A stretch of DNA of 64,000 bases from Vulcanimicrobiales bacterium (lineage in GTDB: Bacteria; Vulcanimicrobiota; Vulcanimicrobiia; Vulcanimicrobiales; Vulcanimicrobiaceae). Below are positions 31,681 through 40,567 of this stretch, in pieces (the first letter of the stretch is position 1; each line of letters begins with the position of its first letter). The stretch is from the NCBI GenBank assembly GCA_038231455.1, contig JBBRLI010000006.1:1-64000 (forward strand). Direction: 5' to 3'. The notes beneath the pieces were generated by a model. The model ran no database searches, was not told the DNA's origin, and saw only the letters and a program-made list of their open reading frames with translations. Position numbers and translations under genes: made by a program.

Positions 31681-32283
31681 TCACGCGAGCATCCCGCGCA
31701 TCGTCATGTCGCACATCGCTTGCGCCATTTGCATCGGATCTTCAAGCGGCATATCGCCGACCGTGAAGTGCAAGCTGACGATGCCATGCATGGCGGCCCA
31801 CAAGAGTTGCGAGAGCATCTCCGCGCGGAGCCCCGGTTCGAGTCGGCCGGTGGCGATCATTTCCTCCACCGTGTGTGTGAGGAACGCGAACGGATCGGCC
31901 TGGGAACCCTCCGGGCAAATGACTTCGTGCGAGAGTTGCGGGGCGTCCATGAAGATGAGGCGGTACGTTTCGGGGTTCTCCATCCCAAAACGCACGTAGG
32001 CAAGACCGATCTGGACGACGCGCTCGACGGGGTCGGCGATCGCCGCCAGTGGCCGAAACGAGTTCACGAGCTGCTCGAACGCGTCTTGCATGAGTTCGAC
32101 GGCGATTTCGTCGCGACCGGGGAAGTGCAGGTAGATGGTCGCCGGCGAGTATTCGATTGCGTCGGCGACCCGTCGCATCGTGAGCCCTTCGAGGCCGTCC
32201 TCGAGCACGATCGCGCGGGCCGCCTCGAGAATCCGCTGACGGAGCTCGGCCTTCTGGCGTTCCTTGCGTTCGGTGATGCCCAT
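31681..32283 (-). CDS. TetR/AcrR family transcriptional regulator (WHG-type C-terminus)
   Basis: ILEAAR..GLEGLTMRRVADAIEYSPATIYLHF; WAAMHG. Confidence 0.93.
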   Translation of the reverse strand: MGITERKERQKAELRQRILEAARAIVLEDGLEGLTMRRVADAIEYSPATIYLHFPGRDEIAVELMQDAFEQLVNSFRPLAAIADPVERVVQIGLAYVRFGMENPETYRLIFMDAPQLSHEVICPEGSQADPFAFLTHTVEEMIATGRLEPGLRAEMLSQLLWAAMHGIVSLHFTVGDMPLEDPMQMAQAMCDMTMRGMLA

Positions 32284-32290
32284 GGGCGTC

Positions 32291-32319
32291 ACGATACCGC
32301 GCAAGAAGACAACTGTCAA
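32291..32319 (-). promoter_or_regulatory. Sigma70-type promoter of tetR (leaderless transcript)
   Basis: TTGACA-N17-TATCGT with ATG 7 nt downstream of the -10 and no SD. Confidence 0.65.
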
Positions 32320-32327
32320 TATGTTTA

Positions 32328-32340
32328 TGAACGGCGTTCA
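32328..32340. promoter_or_regulatory. Second TGAAC-N3-GTTCA operator, between tetR and the selenoprotein gene
   Basis: TGAACGGCGTTCA. Confidence 0.65.
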
Positions 32341-32385
32341 GTGAAAGCGCGAATCGCCCGAGCCCGAAGTCGGGTTTGCGTGGAT

Positions 32386-33156
32386 ATGAGTCTGGAACAC
32401 AATCCGCTCCGAACCGCGTGGGCCGCCTGGCTACCGGGCGCCCTAACGCAGCTCGAAGCTGAGTCGTATAAAGAGGCCCTCGTCGGCTTTCCGCGGCCGG
32501 ACCATCCGCCGTTGCCCTTCCTACAAGCGCCGTCGCCTGGGGAACGACGAATCGCCCTGATTACCTCGTCCGGCGCCTACGATACGCAAACCCAGGCGCC
32601 GTTTGTCGCGCGCTCGGCAGTCGGCGATATCAGCCATCGGGTTTTCCCGACGTCGCTTCCGGACGAGCGCCTCGGATTCGCGCACGGACACTACGACGAC
32701 GAACACGTCCTCGCCGATCGTGAAGTGCTGGTGCCGCGGCGGACCCTCGCAGCCGAAGGCGCGATCCTCACCGAGAATGTCATCTCGACGATGGGATACG
32801 CCATCGATTTTCCATCGTTTCTCGAAGCGACGATTCCGCAACTCATCTTGCAAGCGAAAAACGACGGCGCGAATTGCGCGCTGCTGGTCCCCGTTTGACC
32901 CATGTGTCACCAGACGGTCCGTCTGGTCGCCGACGCCTTCGAACAAGCGAACATCCCGACCGTTGTTGTCGGAACGATGCACGCGCCGCTCAAAGGATTA
33001 CCGCGCGTGCTCATCTCACGCTATGACCGCGGGCGCAATTTTGGGATGCCGAACGATACGAGCGAACATCACGCGCTCGTGCGCGAAGCGCTCTCGCTCT
33101 TCGATGTCACGGAGCCGACACTGATCGATCACAAGGAGCGCGCCGCGGCCCCGTAG
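32386..33156 (+). CDS. GrdB/PrdB-like (glycine/betaine/sarcosine/D-proline reductase B family) selenoprotein; in-frame TGA 32896-32898 = Sec171
   Basis: RIALITSSGAY..Q.PF...GD.SHR, HGHYD, then ALLVPV-TGA-PMCHQTV..ADAFEQANIPTV; the two ORF-track pieces are in one frame; UxxC motif; downstream hairpin. Confidence 0.85.
32909..32927 (+). other. Putative bacterial SECIS element
   Basis: ACCAGACG-GTC-CGTCTGGT perfect hairpin starting 10 nt after the UGA, with G/GU at the apical loop. Confidence 0.7.
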
Positions 33157-33175
33157 CCGCGACGCGCACGACCGC

Positions 33176-34054
33176 TTGCAACGACCCTCGCAAAATGCGG
33201 CGCTCGGCGCCGCCGCCGCGCTGTTCTACGTCTTCCTATGGGCCTCGGCGTACGTGCCGAGTAAAACCGGCGTCCTCAATTCATCGCCGCTGTGGTTTCT
33301 CGTCGTGCGCTTCGCCGTTTCCGGGGGCGTTTTTCTTGCCGTTGCCTTGGCGCTGGGCGGAAAGCTCCCGCGCTCCGGTCGTGACTGGATCGCGATCGTC
33401 GTGCTCGGCATCACGTCGAACGCGATCTACTTAGGCTGCACCTACGAGGCACTGCGTCACATGGCAGCCGGCATCGGAGCGATCGTTGCGAGTACGAATC
33501 CGCTGGTGCTGGCGTTTGTCGCGCCGTTTCTGTTGCGCGAACGTTTGACATGGATGAAGGTCGCGGGTCTCTTGATGGGATTCGGTGGCGTCGTTGCGAT
33601 CATGATCGTGCGTACCGGAACGGGGAGTGCCCAACCGCTCGATGTGTTGCTCGCGTTCGTCGGTGTCCTTGGGAGCGTGGCCGGAACGATCGTCTTCAAG
33701 AAATATTGTGGCGACTTCGATTTACGAATCGTGACGGCATTGCAGTTGCTCGTCGCGGGCGTTGCGCTGTTCCCGCTTGCCATTCTCACCGAAGGCGCAC
33801 CGCACATGATCTGGGGTCTGCCGATCGTCGAATCGTTCGTGTACGTCGTCGTCGTGATGTCGATCGGCGCATCGACGCTTTGGTTCTGGCTGCTCACGCA
33901 CGGTGAAGCCAGTCGCGTGAGCGCGTACTACTTCCTCACGCCGATTTTCGGTCTCTTTCTCGCGGCGATTCTCTTGCACGAACCGGTGACCGGGCGCGAC
34001 CTCTTCGGACTTGCGGGTATCGCGGTCGGAATCGCACTCGTGCAGCGCGGATGA
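33176..34054 (+). CDS. EamA/DMT family transporter
   Basis: 10 TM, two EamA repeats; LRERL, LHEPVT motifs. Confidence 0.9.
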   Translation: MQRPSQNAALGAAAALFYVFLWASAYVPSKTGVLNSSPLWFLVVRFAVSGGVFLAVALALGGKLPRSGRDWIAIVVLGITSNAIYLGCTYEALRHMAAGIGAIVASTNPLVLAFVAPFLLRERLTWMKVAGLLMGFGGVVAIMIVRTGTGSAQPLDVLLAFVGVLGSVAGTIVFKKYCGDFDLRIVTALQLLVAGVALFPLAILTEGAPHMIWGLPIVESFVYVVVVMSIGASTLWFWLLTHGEASRVSAYYFLTPIFGLFLAAILLHEPVTGRDLFGLAGIAVGIALVQRG

Positions 34055-35250
34055 CGATGCGCTGGCGGATGCTCGCGCTGATGACCGGCTCGCAAGTCGG
34101 CGGCGCGATCGTTCAACAGGGCCTCGGTTCGCTTGCGCCCGTTCTCCTCGTGACCTTCGCGCTCTCCAAAGCACAACTCGGCACGGTGTTCACCGCGCTC
34201 TCGATCGGTAGCGCACTCTTCACCACACTCGCGGGCGTCATCGTCGATCGCTACGGCGAACGCGTCGTCACGCTGTGGGGCGGCGTGCTGCTCGGCGCGA
34301 CGCTGCTTGCGGCATCGGCCGTCGCATCGTATCCGTGGCTCGTCGCGTGCATCTTTCTCTTCGGCATTTCGTACGCCGCGCAAACACCCGCCGGGGGACG
34401 TGCGGTGCTCGCGTGGTTCGATCGCGACCGTGGTCTTGCAATGTCGATTCGCCAAACCGGCGTGCCGCTCGGCGGTGCGATCGGCGGACTGATTCTGCCG
34501 TTTCTCGCGCTGCACTATAACTACCGCGTCGCACTTGCCGTCGGTGGCATCCTCGGCGCGGCCGCAGCGATCGTCGCCGCGCGCTACTACGTCGATCCGC
34601 CGCGGAAAGCGACAACCGTGCGCGGACTCGGTGATGTCCTGCGCGGCATGATGCGGCTGGTGCGCAGTCCGCGTACCATCCTCTTCACACTTGCGTGCAT
34701 GGTGCTCGTGAGCGGACAGACGATCATGAACGCGTTCTTCGCGATCACCGCCATCGCCGACGTGCACGTCAGTGCAGCGGTTGCGGCCGGCGCTTTTGCG
34801 TTCGCACAGATCTGCGCGGTCGCGGGCCGTGTCGTCTGGGGAAAACTGAGCGACACGCTGTACCGCGGCGATCGCGCGCTGCCGATCGCGACGATCGGCG
34901 CGATCCTTACCGTATGCGCCTGGACGATCGCGCACATCGCACCGGGCGCCGTGTTCGAACTCTTCATCGTCGGCGGATTACTCGGGTTTTCGGCATCGAG
35001 TTGGAACGGCGTCATGGCAACGGCGATGGCCGAGATCGGTGGCCCCGAGTACGCGGGCAGCGTGCTAGGCGTCGCCCTCACGTTTATCTTCGCGGCCGCG
35101 GGCGCCGCGCCGCTGATCTTCGGCTCGCTCGCCGACGCACATTCGCTACGCCTCGCGTGGATGGTCCTCGCGGCGGTCGCTGCGCTTGGAATCGTTCCCG
35201 CACTCGGTGCGGCGTTTCTCGCGCGACGCGAAGCAACGTTTGCACGCTAG
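34051..35250 (+). CDS. MFS transporter
   Basis: GVIVDRYGER, WFDRDRGLAMSIRQTGVPLGG. Confidence 0.9.
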   Translation: MTMRWRMLALMTGSQVGGAIVQQGLGSLAPVLLVTFALSKAQLGTVFTALSIGSALFTTLAGVIVDRYGERVVTLWGGVLLGATLLAASAVASYPWLVACIFLFGISYAAQTPAGGRAVLAWFDRDRGLAMSIRQTGVPLGGAIGGLILPFLALHYNYRVALAVGGILGAAAAIVAARYYVDPPRKATTVRGLGDVLRGMMRLVRSPRTILFTLACMVLVSGQTIMNAFFAITAIADVHVSAAVAAGAFAFAQICAVAGRVVWGKLSDTLYRGDRALPIATIGAILTVCAWTIAHIAPGAVFELFIVGGLLGFSASSWNGVMATAMAEIGGPEYAGSVLGVALTFIFAAAGAAPLIFGSLADAHSLRLAWMVLAAVAALGIVPALGAAFLARREATFAR

Positions 35251-36325: not shown

Positions 36326-36493
36326 CGTAGTCTTGTGAACGAACAAATCGCTAACGGCATTTCATCTTGGCCGGATGCCGGTTAAGCGCCCCTTTGGACG
36401 CCGCGTGCGGTACGACAATCGTCGCGCAGGCCGAAAACATGGTTGACCGAAGCCTGTTGTGTTGAATGTGTCGCGTCGTGGAGTGGTGGTTTC

Positions 36494-39400
36494 GTGCTCG
36501 AATCGTTGGTGAAAGTTGCTCTTCCGGAACTCGGGGAGTCCGTCACCGAAGGCTCAATCGTCGAGTGGCGCAAGAAAGTCGGCCAGTGGGTCGCTGAAGG
36601 CGATACGATCGTCGATGTGACGACCGACAAAGTCGATGTCGAAGTGCCCGCGACGGTATCCGGTGTGATCACCGCGCTGTACGGCGGCGAAGGCGATACG
36701 GTTGCCGTCGGCGCGACGCTTGCCGAGATCGACACATCCGCGGCAAAACCGGAAGGCGGCCCCGAAGCCGCATCATCATCCGCTGCTGCGGCGCCTGCCG
36801 CAACAGGGACGAAGGCCCCCGCCGACGTCGTCACGCCATCATCGTATGGCGCGGCCGGCAGTGCCGCCACGCCGCCGACGATGACAAACGGCAACGGCAA
36901 AACCGGTGGCACCGCCTCCGCGCACGCGCGCCGTCTTGCCGAACGGTATCACGTCGACATCGCAAGCATTCGCGGAACCGGTCCCGATGGGTTGATCGTG
37001 CGCGAAGATGTCGAACACGCGATCGCGTCGGGTTCGGCCAAGCCTGCCTCAAACGGTGCGAGCGCTCCGGCGATCAACTTCCCCGCGCCGTCCGCGCAAG
37101 CAACGATCACGACGCTCAAAGGCCCGCAGGCCGTGCTTGCGACGTACATGGATCAGTCGCTCTCGATTCCCACCGCGACGTCGTTCCGGACGCTCTCGGT
37201 TGGTGCGCTCGAAGCGCGACGTGCCGAGCTCAACGGCGCGCTCAAAGCCGCCGGCAAATCGGACAAGATTTCGTTCACGCATCTCATTGCCTACGCACTC
37301 GTCGTCGCAGCAAACGAAGCACCCGCGATCACCGCGAGTTTCCGCCGCGACGGCGCGACCGTGCAGAAGATCGAAGCCGGCGTGCATCTTGGCATCGCCG
37401 TCGACATGACGCGTAAAGATGGTTCGCGATCGCTGGTCGTGCCCGTAATCAAAGGCGCAGCGTCGATGGATTTCGTCGCGTTCCGCGCGGCGTACGAAGC
37501 GCTGATTGTGAAAGCCCGCGATGGCAAACTGACCGCCGACGAACTTTCCGGCGCAACGTTCACGCTAACGAATCCCGGCGGCATCGGAACCATCGCCTCC
37601 GTGCCGCGTTTGATGGTCGGCCAAGGCGCGATCATCGCCGCTGGCGCGATCGCGTATCCGCCCGGCTTCGCGCACGCGCCCGATTCGACGTTAAAACAGC
37701 TCGGCATCGAAAAAGTCATGACCATGACCTCGACCTACGATCATCGCGTGATCCAAGGTGCGCAGTCGGGTGAATTCCTCAAACGCGTCGATGAGTTGCT
37801 CGCAGGCGCAAGTGAATTTTACGAAGGCGTCTTCCGCGCGTACGGTCTTGCCTCACCCCGTGTGATGGCGACCGCCGTAACGACGAACGCGCGTCCGACG
37901 AGTTCGGCGAATGCAGCGGCTCCGGCTGCCGCCGGAACGGCCGCATCCTCGCAAACGGCGGGCGCAACCTCGGAAGAGATGCTGCGCGCGATCGCCGCCG
38001 GGATGGCGATGGTCTCATCGTATCGCCGTCACGGCCACCTTGCCGCGACGCTCGATCCGCTTGGGAAAGAACCCGTCGGCGACCCATCGCTCGATCCACG
38101 CAATTACAGCCTCACGCCCGCGCTGATGAGTGCGATCCCCGCATCGGTGCTGCGCGTCAAAGTGCCCGGCGGCACGATGGCCGACGTCTTGCCGGCACTC
38201 CGCGAAACGTACAGCGGCACGATCGCCTACGAAGTCGAGCACATCTCCAATACGCAGCAGCGTGAATGGCTGCGCGAATATATCGAGAGCGGCATGCATC
38301 GTACGCCGCTCACCGCGCAGCGCAAAGTGCAAGTCCTCCAGCGTCTCACCAAAGTCGAGACGATGGAACGGTATTTCCGTAAACAGTTCATGTCGCAGAA
38401 GACGTTCTCGATCGAAGGCCTCGACGTGATGGTTCCGATGATCGAAGAGATGATTTCAATGCTTGCCGAAGACGGCACCAAAACGGCCGTTCTCGGCATG
38501 GCACATCGCGGACGCCTCTCGACGATCGCGCACGTCGTCAACCGGCCGTACGAAGAACTACTCGCCGAATTTGAGGCGGGCTCGATGAAGACGGCGCTTA
38601 GCGACGGCGATGAATCCGACGACGCAACCGGCGATGTGAAATACCATCACGGCGCCGATGGAATCTATGCAACGTCGATGGGCACGCAGATCGCGGTTAA
38701 ACTCGCGAACAACCCGAGTCACCTCGAGGCCGTCGACGGTGTCGTCGAAGGCATCACGCGTTCGCTGCAAACCGATCACGCGCAAAACATCGCGCGCATG
38801 GACTTCACGGCAGCAGCCCCCATCCTCATCCACGGCGACTCGGCCTTCCCGGGTCAAGGCGTGGTAAGCGAAGTCCTCAACCTGCAGGCCCTCGTCGGCT
38901 ATGCGACCGGCGGCACGATCCATATCATTTCGAACAATCAAGTCGGTTTCACGACCGATCCGAACGAGAGCCGCTCGACGCGTTATGCATCGGATCTTGC
39001 CAAAGGTTTCGACGTGCCGATCGTGCACGTCAACGCCGATGACGTCGATGCGTGCATCGCCGCGGTGCATTTCGCCATCGACTATCGCCGTAAATTCGGC
39101 CGCGATACCGTGATCGATCTGATCGGCTATCGCCGCTTCGGTCACAACGAACAAGACGAGCCGATGTACACTCAGCCGGGGATGTACGAGACGATCAAGG
39201 CGCATCCGACGGTGCGCGAACTTTTTGCCGCGAATCTCGTCGCGCAAGGCGTGCTCAGTGCCGATCAAGTGAGCGAACTGCAAGATGACGCGCAGGCGCG
39301 TATCGCCGAGGCGCACGCAAACGTCAAGAACGGCAACATCGCCAAGCTCATCGGCGCGGATAAAGTCAAGATCCACATCGATGAAAAGCCGGCTTCGACC

Positions 39401-40567
39401 GGTATCGAGAAGCGGAAATTGCTGGCGTGGGCAGACGCCCTCGTCGCAACGCCCGAGGGATTTACGCCGAACAAGAAACTCGTCTCGCAATTCGACAAGC
39501 GCAAAAAAGCGTTGCAAGCCGAAGGCGAAGTCGACTGGGGCCTAGCCGAGGGCCTGGCGTTCGCATCGCTGATCGATGAGGGGACGCCCGTGCGTCTCAC
39601 CGGTCAAGACTCCGAGCGCGGGACGTTTAGCCACCGTCACGCGGTGCTTCACGATGCCCTTACCGGCGAGAAGTACGCGCCGCTCCAGCATCTGCCCGGC
39701 GCTAAAGCGTCGTTTGAAATTCATAACAGCCCGCTCTCCGAGTACGCGTGTCTTGGCTTTGAGTACGGCTACTCGACCGGGTTGCCCGAGGCGATGGTGC
39801 TGTGGGAAGCGCAATTCGGTGACTTCAATAATGGCGCCCAGATCATCATCGATCAGTTTATCGCATCGGGTGCGGCGAAGTGGGGTCAAACCACGCGTTT
39901 GACGCTGCTCTTGCCGCACGGCTACGAGGGTGCAGGTCCCGAACATTCGAGCGCGCGTTTGGAACGCTTCCTGCAACTCTCGGCCGAAGGCAATATTCGG
40001 ATCGCGAACTGCACGACGGCGGCCCAGTATTTCCACTTGCTGCGCCAGCAGGCGCGCGCGAAGGCGGCCTATCCGCTCGTCGTGCTCACGCCCAAGAGTC
40101 TCTTGCGTAACCGCGCTGCCTACGGAAAGATCGACGATCTTGCATCCGGTTCGTTCCGGGAAACGATCGACGATGCGAAGTTCGCAAGCGATAAAGGGGC
40201 CGTCACGCGCATCTTACTTTGCAGCGGGAAAATCTATCACGATTTGATCGCATCGCCGCTCTACGCGCAAACGAAGTCGACCGCGATCGTGCGCGTTGAA
40301 TTGCTCTCGCCGCTGCCGAAGGTCGCGATCCTCGAGACCATCGCGTCCTACCCCAATGCCAAACACGTCATTTGGGTTCAGGAAGAGCCCAAGAACATGG
40401 GCGCTCGCGCGCACGTGCGCCGTCGTTTAGTCGAAGAACTCGCGCCCCAGGTTGCGGATGTCGAGTACGTCGGTCGGCCCTACCGCGCGTCTCCCTCGGA
40501 AGGCTATCCGGGCGCGCACGCCGTCGAGCAAGAGCGGATCATCCGCACGGCGCTGACCGAAAATTAG
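36494..40567 (+). CDS. sucA: Multifunctional 2-oxoglutarate dehydrogenase: lipoyl domain + PSBD + E2 acyltransferase + E1 in one chain
   Basis: LPELGESVTEG..TDKV lipoyl; ARRLA..GTGPDG PSBD; TYDHRVIQGA E2; GMAHRGRL, HGDSAF, RLTGQD, WEAQFGDF, GPEHSS E1; start GTG 36494 inferred. Confidence 0.93.
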   Translation: MLESLVKVALPELGESVTEGSIVEWRKKVGQWVAEGDTIVDVTTDKVDVEVPATVSGVITALYGGEGDTVAVGATLAEIDTSAAKPEGGPEAASSSAAAAPAATGTKAPADVVTPSSYGAAGSAATPPTMTNGNGKTGGTASAHARRLAERYHVDIASIRGTGPDGLIVREDVEHAIASGSAKPASNGASAPAINFPAPSAQATITTLKGPQAVLATYMDQSLSIPTATSFRTLSVGALEARRAELNGALKAAGKSDKISFTHLIAYALVVAANEAPAITASFRRDGATVQKIEAGVHLGIAVDMTRKDGSRSLVVPVIKGAASMDFVAFRAAYEALIVKARDGKLTADELSGATFTLTNPGGIGTIASVPRLMVGQGAIIAAGAIAYPPGFAHAPDSTLKQLGIEKVMTMTSTYDHRVIQGAQSGEFLKRVDELLAGASEFYEGVFRAYGLASPRVMATAVTTNARPTSSANAAAPAAAGTAASSQTAGATSEEMLRAIAAGMAMVSSYRRHGHLAATLDPLGKEPVGDPSLDPRNYSLTPALMSAIPASVLRVKVPGGTMADVLPALRETYSGTIAYEVEHISNTQQREWLREYIESGMHRTPLTAQRKVQVLQRLTKVETMERYFRKQFMSQKTFSIEGLDVMVPMIEEMISMLAEDGTKTAVLGMAHRGRLSTIAHVVNRPYEELLAEFEAGSMKTALSDGDESDDATGDVKYHHGADGIYATSMGTQIAVKLANNPSHLEAVDGVVEGITRSLQTDHAQNIARMDFTAAAPILIHGDSAFPGQGVVSEVLNLQALVGYATGGTIHIISNNQVGFTTDPNESRSTRYASDLAKGFDVPIVHVNADDVDACIAAVHFAIDYRRKFGRDTVIDLIGYRRFGHNEQDEPMYTQPGMYETIKAHPTVRELFAANLVAQGVLSADQVSELQDDAQARIAEAHANVKNGNIAKLIGADKVKIHIDEKPASTGIEKRKLLAWADALVATPEGFTPNKKLVSQFDKRKKALQAEGEVDWGLAEGLAFASLIDEGTPVRLTGQDSERGTFSHRHAVLHDALTGEKYAPLQHLPGAKASFEIHNSPLSEYACLGFEYGYSTGLPEAMVLWEAQFGDFNNGAQIIIDQFIASGAAKWGQTTRLTLLLPHGYEGAGPEHSSARLERFLQLSAEGNIRIANCTTAAQYFHLLRQQARAKAAYPLVVLTPKSLLRNRAAYGKIDDLASGSFRETIDDAKFASDKGAVTRILLCSGKIYHDLIASPLYAQTKSTAIVRVELLSPLPKVAILETIASYPNAKHVIWVQEEPKNMGARAHVRRRLVEELAPQVADVEYVGRPYRASPSEGYPGAHAVEQERIIRTALTEN

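Follow-up and report, generated by a model that had tools for sequence, protein, structure and literature searches.

Does an in-frame TGA codon in the genome of a Vulcanimicrobiales bacterium end a protein, or does it encode selenocysteine (Sec) within one? The codon lies in a 64,000-nucleotide stretch of DNA (positions 1 to 64,000 of contig JBBRLI010000006.1, assembly GCA_038231455.1), the whole of which we call the window. It occupies positions 32896-32898 and is the sole interruption of a single frame that runs on the plus strand from 32386 to 33156. The codons around the site, CTG GTC CCC GTT TGA CCC ATG TGT CAC, are all in frame, and the two open reading frames (ORFs) listed here under translation table 11, 31720..32898 (+) and 32902..33156 (+), have this frame in common. 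When the TGA is read as Sec (U), translation from the ATG at 32386 to the TAG at 33154-33156 yields a product of 256 amino acids (aa), with U as residue 171 within NCALLVPV-U-PMCHQTVRLVADAFEQANIPTV. An earlier sequence-only reading of the stretch had reported the break and restart of the ORF in one frame and had proposed a hidden GrdB/PrdB-like selenoprotein with Sec171; its coordinates, its peptide and its joined protein of 256 aa all agree with the sequence, the ORF list and our translation. On comparative evidence, we consider it almost certain that 32386-33156 is one gene with Sec at the UGA. Our overall reading, which we regard as very likely, is that the gene encodes one 256-aa Sec-containing protein of the PrdB/GrdB superfamily, which would use a UxxC mechanism and would not belong to a canonical reductase.

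To assess the conservation of the codon, we searched 201 genomes of the phylum, representing 80 genera, in all six frames and re-aligned each matched place to the window protein. The search recovered 28 places in 18 genomes and 12 genera. In 26 of these places, the window's own among them, the codon aligned with residue 171 is TGA. The remaining two are a place with TGC, a cysteine (Cys) codon (L034), and a weak match with Leu (L038, E 7.6e-6), which looks unrelated to the window protein. In 12 comparisons with the window protein, the parts before and after the codon are equally well conserved: the closest orthologue is 62% identical upstream and 61% downstream, and the next 51% before the codon and 55% after it. 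Neither a nonsense mutation nor a pair of independent genes can account for this pattern.

The residues around the site are conserved as well. We aligned 13 sequences (alignment A2: ten orthologues, two paralogues and the Cys form) and found C174, H175, V181, E186, T192, P206, R207 and G220 to be invariant 3' of the UGA. Residues D81, R85, D111, P117, G137, H175, E186, T192, P206, R207 and G220 are conserved throughout the clade, which makes them candidates for substrate binding. The motifs named in the sequence-only reading are recovered in this alignment: U-x-x-C is present, D81 and R85 of the upstream GD.S.R motif are invariant, and the downstream E/T motif corresponds to the invariant E186 and T192. 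The N-terminus of the predicted product coincides with that of the orthologues, which have the pattern M-x-x-E/x-x-N-x-Y-R...WAAWLP in the same alignment.

Protein databases contain the gene in pieces. Searching 5.8 billion proteins for matches of near length gave 32, of which 31 terminate in ALLVPV, mostly at a length of 168-170 aa; three of the entries with this end have longer N-termini (188-257 aa), and the one remaining match, of 151 aa, ends before ALLVPV. The named entries are each called 'hypothetical protein', come from Candidatus Velthaea, Candidatus Elarobacter or Eremiobacteraeota metagenome-assembled genomes (MAGs), and have no precomputed Pfam domain. When 1.84 billion cluster representatives were searched exhaustively with HMMER, 338 matched at E <= 0.001, three of them at E <= 1e-30. 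The 150 matches listed comprise full-length proteins running across the site, proteins that stop at it, and short C-terminal fragments. At least 33 among the matches listed stop at the site with a [VI]-P-[VAIS] end, and the separate C-terminal entries measure 59-84 aa, one of 84 aa being 83% identical to residues 173-256. Entries of 170 aa and 84 aa match the split into two fragments that had been expected of gene callers. Because every entry found for the clade is cut at the UGA, and the named ones are called hypothetical, the gene is invisible to standard pipelines.

The full-length homologues reveal which residue stands in place of the UGA codon. We aligned the window protein with 39 full-length homologues from the HMMER listing that span the site (alignment A1, 40 sequences). 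The Sec column of the homologues holds Cys in 29 cases, Ser in five, Gly in three, and Trp and Arg in one each; the column of C174 holds Cys in 33, Asp in five and Gly in one. By this alignment, Cys opposite the UGA represents the usual Sec/Cys pairing. The homologue with Trp at the Sec column (P0053) reads LLAPV-W-PVCNQ there, and this Trp may come from a TGA that was translated under a Trp-reading code, so that the sequence would be another Sec form. A single-protein search for related loci added one locus, 30% identical, in a Bryobacteraceae MAG. Four of the places found in the phylum (L035-L037 and L044, in genomes G137, G169, G192 and G145) form a subfamily whose motif is GA-U-PMCT or PS-U-PLCT and whose members are extended at the C-terminus, so that ~232-236 aa follow the Sec. 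The extension is also seen in some of the Cys homologues of alignment A1 (P0081, P0085, P0089 and P0096).

The genome of the window (3.71 Mb in 106 contigs, 93.67% complete) encodes the components needed for Sec insertion. We found selA (C28:20030-21364, 520 bits) with selB directly downstream of it (275 bits, or 305 with the C-terminal piece and frame neighbours), selD (385 bits; G000:C7:149899-150819 (+), L010) and a tRNA-Sec (71.6 bits), which ARAGORN reports as tRNA-SeC with the anticodon TCA. The selD gene contains one in-frame TGA of its own, and selenophosphate synthetase is probably itself a selenoprotein in this genome. The call of Sec171 thus has the conserved TGA, the aligned Cys and the Sec machinery all in its favour. 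Across the phylum, 167 of the 201 sampled genomes have a selA that exceeds the cut-off, among them all 18 that have a homologue of the window protein; one of those counted (G128) is flagged as unpublished, and the tally is 166/200 without it. As selA is so common in the phylum, its co-occurrence with the homologue adds little. The tally indicates that Sec use is broad in this lineage, and three PrdB-family selenoproteins are predicted in this genome.

The PrdB model of NCBIfam, TIGR04483, matches the window protein at E 1.6e-20 (73.6 bits), aligning residues 53-239 with model positions 29-218 of 238, so that the match covers both sides of the Sec. The GrdF model, of ~435 positions, gives a marginal match over positions 230-377 only. 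TIGR04483 is matched by all 40 sequences of alignment A1, PF07355 by 32 of the 40 and by both paralogues in the genome, and the GrdB, GrdF and GrdH models and TIGR01918 by 33 to 38 of the 40. The tie of the window protein to PF07355 is transitive only, because its homologues and paralogues match the family and the window protein itself does not. We are confident that the window protein belongs to the GrdB/PrdB selenoprotein B superfamily. The proposal of a PrdB/GrdB-like protein was therefore right at the level of the superfamily, and its narrower sense, a subunit of proline or glycine reductase, is unsupported, the score being below the cut-off and the partners not found. Three of the 40 sequences in alignment A1 have weak matches (best E about 1e-4) to another family, UGSC (PF24696, NF041046), which suggests that UGSC selenoproteins may be distant relatives of PrdB-like proteins around the Sec site.

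Structure prediction treats the joined product as one unit. AlphaFold2, run with alignment A1 (40 sequences), predicts a single compact alpha/beta domain (predicted local distance difference test score, pLDDT, 94.8; predicted template modelling score, pTM, 0.92) that is built with strands from both halves of the joined protein. In the model, a strand at 164-168 leads into the U-P-M-C turn and then into a helix at 172-187. Foldseek found no match in the PDB below E 0.02, and a wide search with VIA-align ranked generic Rossmann-like folds (LacI-type, short-chain dehydrogenase/reductase and B12-binding) nearly level at Z 8-9, with no specific relative among them. As modelled, the window protein consists of one alpha/beta domain of Rossmann-like type and is a stand-alone member of its superfamily.

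Three PrdB-family genes are present in the genome, each with one in-frame TGA. In the genome search with TIGR04483, the genes at C7:115393-116028 and C14:68611-69252 score 191 and 137 bits and the window's gene 67.7, and judged by these scores the window's gene is the most divergent of the three paralogues. The two others match PF07355 with 41.7 and 35 bits, where the cut-off is 22, and the match stops at position 345 of the 347 in the model, immediately ahead of the TGA. Their motifs read GG-U-PLCH and PA-U-PICH. One has genes for a cytochrome c, ThyX and an M48 peptidase as neighbours, and the other has genes for a TadA-like deaminase and an EAL protein.

Is the window protein then a subunit of a canonical reductase? 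The equivalog cut-off of TIGR04483 lies at 300 bits, above the 73.6 bits of the protein and above the genome-search scores of all three paralogues. At 256 aa, the protein is also shorter than the full-length GrdB architecture of ~430 aa. Searches of the genome for PrdA (TIGR04480), for the GrdE/PrdA family PF09338 and for GrdA (PF04723) gave no match; the 14 control genomes were also negative, so that these searches have no positive control. No prd or grd gene stands beside the locus in any of the 11 orthologous or paralogous loci. Since neither the pyruvoyl partner nor the other subunits turned up, we hold with considerable confidence that the protein is not a subunit of canonical D-proline or glycine reductase.

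The opposite view, that the gene encodes a true PrdB of D-proline reductase or a GrdB-type subunit of glycine, sarcosine or betaine reductase whose partners lie elsewhere or were not assembled, appears improbable to us. It can draw on the PrdB equivalog model being the best family match, on the name 'D-proline reductase (dithiol) PrdB' that the sources give to some Cys homologues, and on the tables of selenoproteome surveys that file such sequences under PrdB (PMC2398784, PMC1088965). It can also draw on partner searches that had no positive control, in a genome that is not complete. Set against these points are the distance from the equivalog cut-off, which the paralogues share (191, 137 and 68 bits), the missing matches to PrdA, PF09338 and GrdA together with the absence of prd or grd neighbours in all 11 loci, and the length of 256 aa against a GrdF model of ~435 residues that is matched over 230-377 only.

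The RNA downstream of the codon was examined for a selenocysteine insertion sequence (SECIS). In the window, a hairpin whose stem begins 11 nt past the UGA and whose apical loop is GUC at 32917-32919 (Table 1) folds at -15.7 kcal/mol with a z of -2.56, and none of 30 dinucleotide shuffles folds as well; a fold of 76 nt has a z of only -0.9. We compared hairpin stability with dinucleotide shuffles at 27 loci. In 25 of the 26 TGA loci, the hairpin that a script ranked best carries GU in its apical loop, which starts 20-30 nt past the U of the UGA. At the other one (L043) the script chose a different hairpin, and the GGUC hairpin of its subfamily was found by eye. The apical loops across the TGA loci are GGUC, GGUCU, GGUCG, GUC, GUU, AGGUG and CGUGC.

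Several observations weigh against the reading of the locus as a PrdB/GrdB-superfamily selenoprotein with a redox-active UxxC site. The first group concerns the hairpin. The z averages -0.33 over the 26 TGA loci, many of which fold no better than shuffles; the register of the hairpin and the sequence of its stem vary between subfamilies; the locus with the Cys codon folds well too (-14.5 kcal/mol); and a scan of 32000-33600 with Rfam at E <= 10 gave five chance-level matches and no SECIS family. Because it is significant for some loci only, the window's included, the hairpin is not family-wide evidence, and as a SECIS it is suggestive only. The second group concerns the family. The Sec column holds a residue other than Cys in 10 of the 39 full-length homologues, and part of the wider family therefore lacks the redox pair, so that not all members use this residue for redox chemistry. 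A Pfam search of the window protein gave nothing meaningful and no match to PF07355 at E <= 1. The sequence-only reading had looked to this family for coverage of both sides of the codon; the coverage is provided by TIGR04483 over residues 53-239 and not by PF07355. Neither sequence nor profile searches of the PDB turned up a solved relative that could confirm the geometry of the active site. The negative searches for PrdA, GrdE and GrdA rest on an incomplete assembly, of which ~6% may be missing, and on no positive control. Finally, selenium incorporation and the full-length product are predictions here, though very probable ones.

If the TGA were instead a real stop, the locus would be a pseudogene or truncated gene that makes the 170-aa N-terminal part, with the 84-aa ORF either separate or untranslated. 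Gene callers do give entries of 170 aa and 84 aa, and TGA is an ordinary stop in this genome, where it ends 477 of 1398 long stop-to-stop frames, a tally that on its own has no power to discriminate between genetic codes. Among sequencing runs, the stretch was located in one DNA run, probably its source, and in no RNA run listed. We consider a real stop highly improbable, as the codon is kept at the same column in 26 places in 12 genera with the downstream part changing at the rate of the upstream part, full-length homologues have Cys at the column, and the model folds as one domain with strands of both halves. It is just as hard to credit that the UGA is read as Trp, Cys or Gly through a changed code or near-cognate suppression, an idea to which the Trp of P0053 and the inconclusive SECIS statistics of the family (the same mean z of -0.33) lend something, given a complete Sec machinery, a selD with its own in-frame TGA, homologues whose aligned residue is Cys, the usual counterpart of Sec, and long frames that are open under table 11 without TGA (in the window the ORFs of 1374 and 1025 aa, elsewhere in the genome selA and selB), by which TGA is not reassigned genome-wide.

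For the reading that we prefer, a Sec-containing protein with a UxxC site, the following mechanism can be proposed. UGA171 would be decoded by SelB with Sec-tRNA(Sec), presumably bound to the hairpin whose stem begins 11 nt past the codon. The active site would be U171-P-M-C174-H175, where a helix begins. With PrdB and GrdB taken as the analogy, the selenol of U171 would act as the nucleophile on a substrate or partner, and C174 would be the resolving thiol that converts the adduct to a selenenylsulfide, which a thiol or dithiol donor would then re-reduce. The same chemistry of selenol nucleophile, resolving thiol and selenenylsulfide is given for PrdB and GrdB in a section of a review (PMC13188914). 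We infer that a UxxC redox mechanism probably operates in the window protein.

A more far-reaching idea is that the stand-alone PrdB-like selenoproteins constitute a reductase family of their own, which would lack a pyruvoyl partner and use the U-P-x-C-H site for the reduction or cleavage of a small molecule in non-fermenting bacteria. The three paralogues in the genome and the Eremiobacterota-specific clade would fit such a family, and the EamA and major facilitator superfamily (MFS) transporters encoded next to the gene could handle its substrate or product under TetR control. We regard this idea as speculative and, on balance, unlikely.

How does the window protein compare with the selenoproteins already described? 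It resembles PrdB (TIGR04483) in its length (256 aa against a 238-position model), in homology over model positions 29-218, in the UxxC Sec and in being one domain as a whole; it differs in its score of 73.6 bits against a cut-off of 300 and in that PrdA and prd neighbours were not found. The host of the window's gene, which the source names of the closest homologues place probably in Eremiobacterota, comes from a sediment metagenome and is no Stickland-fermenting clostridium. The D-proline reductase of Clostridium sticklandii was reportedly described by Kabisch et al. in 1999. With GrdB, GrdF and GrdH (PF07355, TIGR01917/TIGR01918) the window protein has the superfamily and the UxxC motif in common. 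In contrast to them, it has no match to PF07355, covers only the C-terminal third of the GrdF model, and occurs in a genome in which GrdA and GrdE were not found; moreover, the review text gives the GrdB motif as UxxCxxC (PMC13188914), whereas the third Cys is absent from U-P-M-C-H-Q-T here. The UGSC family (PF24696, NF041046) is another family of UxxC selenoproteins, which differs in having U-G-S-C instead of U-P-M-C and which the window protein does not match.

Environmental surveys list many such proteins. The tables of a Sargasso Sea survey have PrdB as the third most abundant known selenoprotein family, with 42 Sec forms and one Cys form (PMC1088965; Zhang, Fomenko and Gladyshev 2005), and those of a Global Ocean Sampling (GOS) survey enter 'Proline reductase PrdB, pfam07355, UxxC' among the most abundant families, with 235 Sec and 110 Cys forms (PMC2398784; Zhang and Gladyshev 2008). 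Passages of two reviews name D-proline reductase (TIGR04483) and GrdB (PF07355) as UxxC selenoproteins (PMC9312934, PMC13188914), and UxxC appears as the family motif of PrdB/GrdB in the survey tables and in one of these reviews (PMC2398784, PMC13188914). The PrdB entries of the Sargasso and GOS surveys are UxxC selenoproteins like the product of the window's gene; they are assigned to pfam07355, are abundant in oxic environmental metagenomes and have fewer Cys than Sec forms, and this is the category to which the window's gene belongs. They differ in being marine, whereas the clade of the window protein is known only from Eremiobacterota-type MAGs, with three cluster representatives at E <= 1e-30 out of 1.84 billion. 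Environmental surveys have thus listed PrdB-type UxxC selenoproteins, also outside Stickland fermenters, since 2005, and the window's gene is a further, mis-annotated member, as far as a comparison with the surveys by their tables goes.

In the literature searched, proteins are named as PrdB-like, GrdB-like, selenoprotein B-like or proline reductase-like only in work on fluoroacetate metabolism in Synergistota, and the family PF07355 is named only in the surveys and reviews cited above. We found no literature that combines Eremiobacterota with selenocysteine. The question that the locus raises, namely the role of PrdB-like selenoproteins in organisms without PrdA, is not new, and the locus does not make its answer newly reachable. 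The window protein would be a reasonable test case, being small and confidently predicted and having Cys homologues.

Table 1. Coordinates of the predicted selenoprotein gene, of its parts and neighbours in the window, and of its two paralogues elsewhere in the genome
Feature	Coordinates	Strand	Basis
Predicted complete selenoprotein gene, 256 codons + TAG at 33154-33156	32386..33156	+	Frame, translation, PrdB model match, AlphaFold2 domain, shared orthologue N-terminus
In-frame UGA, read as Sec171 (predicted)	32896..32898	+	TGA aligned in 26/28 places, Cys homologues, Sec machinery
Putative redox motif U171-P-M-C174-H175	32896..32910	+	C174 and H175 invariant in A2; AlphaFold position between strand 164-168 and helix 172-187
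SECIS-like hairpin	32904..32936	+	Core stem 32909-32916 with 32920-32927 (8 bp); outer 5-bp extension 32904-32908 with 32932-32936
Divergent TetR-family regulator gene (context)	31681..32319	-	TetR_N and TetR_C_33
Sigma-70-like promoter, 10/12 matches; -35 hexamer overlaps listed TTG start of TetR ORF	32319..32291	-	Promoter-like site search
Perfect 6-1-6 palindrome TGAACG-G-CGTTCA between TetR and selenoprotein genes	32328..32340	.	Inverted repeat I2
EamA/drug/metabolite transporter (DMT) gene, 20 nt downstream	33176..34054	+	EamA E 2.5e-38
MFS transporter gene, start overlaps EamA stop by 4 nt	34051..35250	+	MFS_1 E 4.3e-43
PrdB-family paralogue, L045/L052, 191 bits	G000:C7:115393-116028	-	TIGR04483 + one in-frame TGA
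PrdB-family paralogue, L041/L053, 137 bits	G000:C14:68611-69252	-	TIGR04483 + one in-frame TGA

The genes around the predicted selenoprotein gene are listed in Table 1. Upstream, the TetR gene heads an HlyD/AcrB efflux operon. Its true start is probably an ATG near 32283, because the promoter-like TTGACA overlaps the listed TTG start. The palindrome at 32328-32340, which lies next to this promoter-like site, is a candidate TetR operator. Downstream, between the stop of the selenoprotein gene and the start region of EamA, there is a single terminator-like site, a weak one at 33310-33326 (5 pairs, 3 G-C) that lies inside the EamA gene; EamA is probably co-transcribed with the selenoprotein gene.

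At the orthologous loci among the 11 examined, the neighbours are class-III or class-I aminotransferases in convergent orientation, a glutathione S-transferase (GST), an iron-sulfur (FeS) assembly protein, a radical SAM/GNAT pair and an amidohydrolase; they differ from locus to locus, and the TetR/EamA/MFS context is not conserved. No conserved partner gene was found in the 11 loci, and because no partner is conserved, the substrate cannot be inferred from one. Further along the plus strand of the window, at 36443-40567, the 1374-aa ORF encodes lipoyl, E3-binding and E2 catalytic domains fused to a 2-oxoglutarate dehydrogenase E1, an architecture that we take to resemble that of the actinobacterial Kgd.

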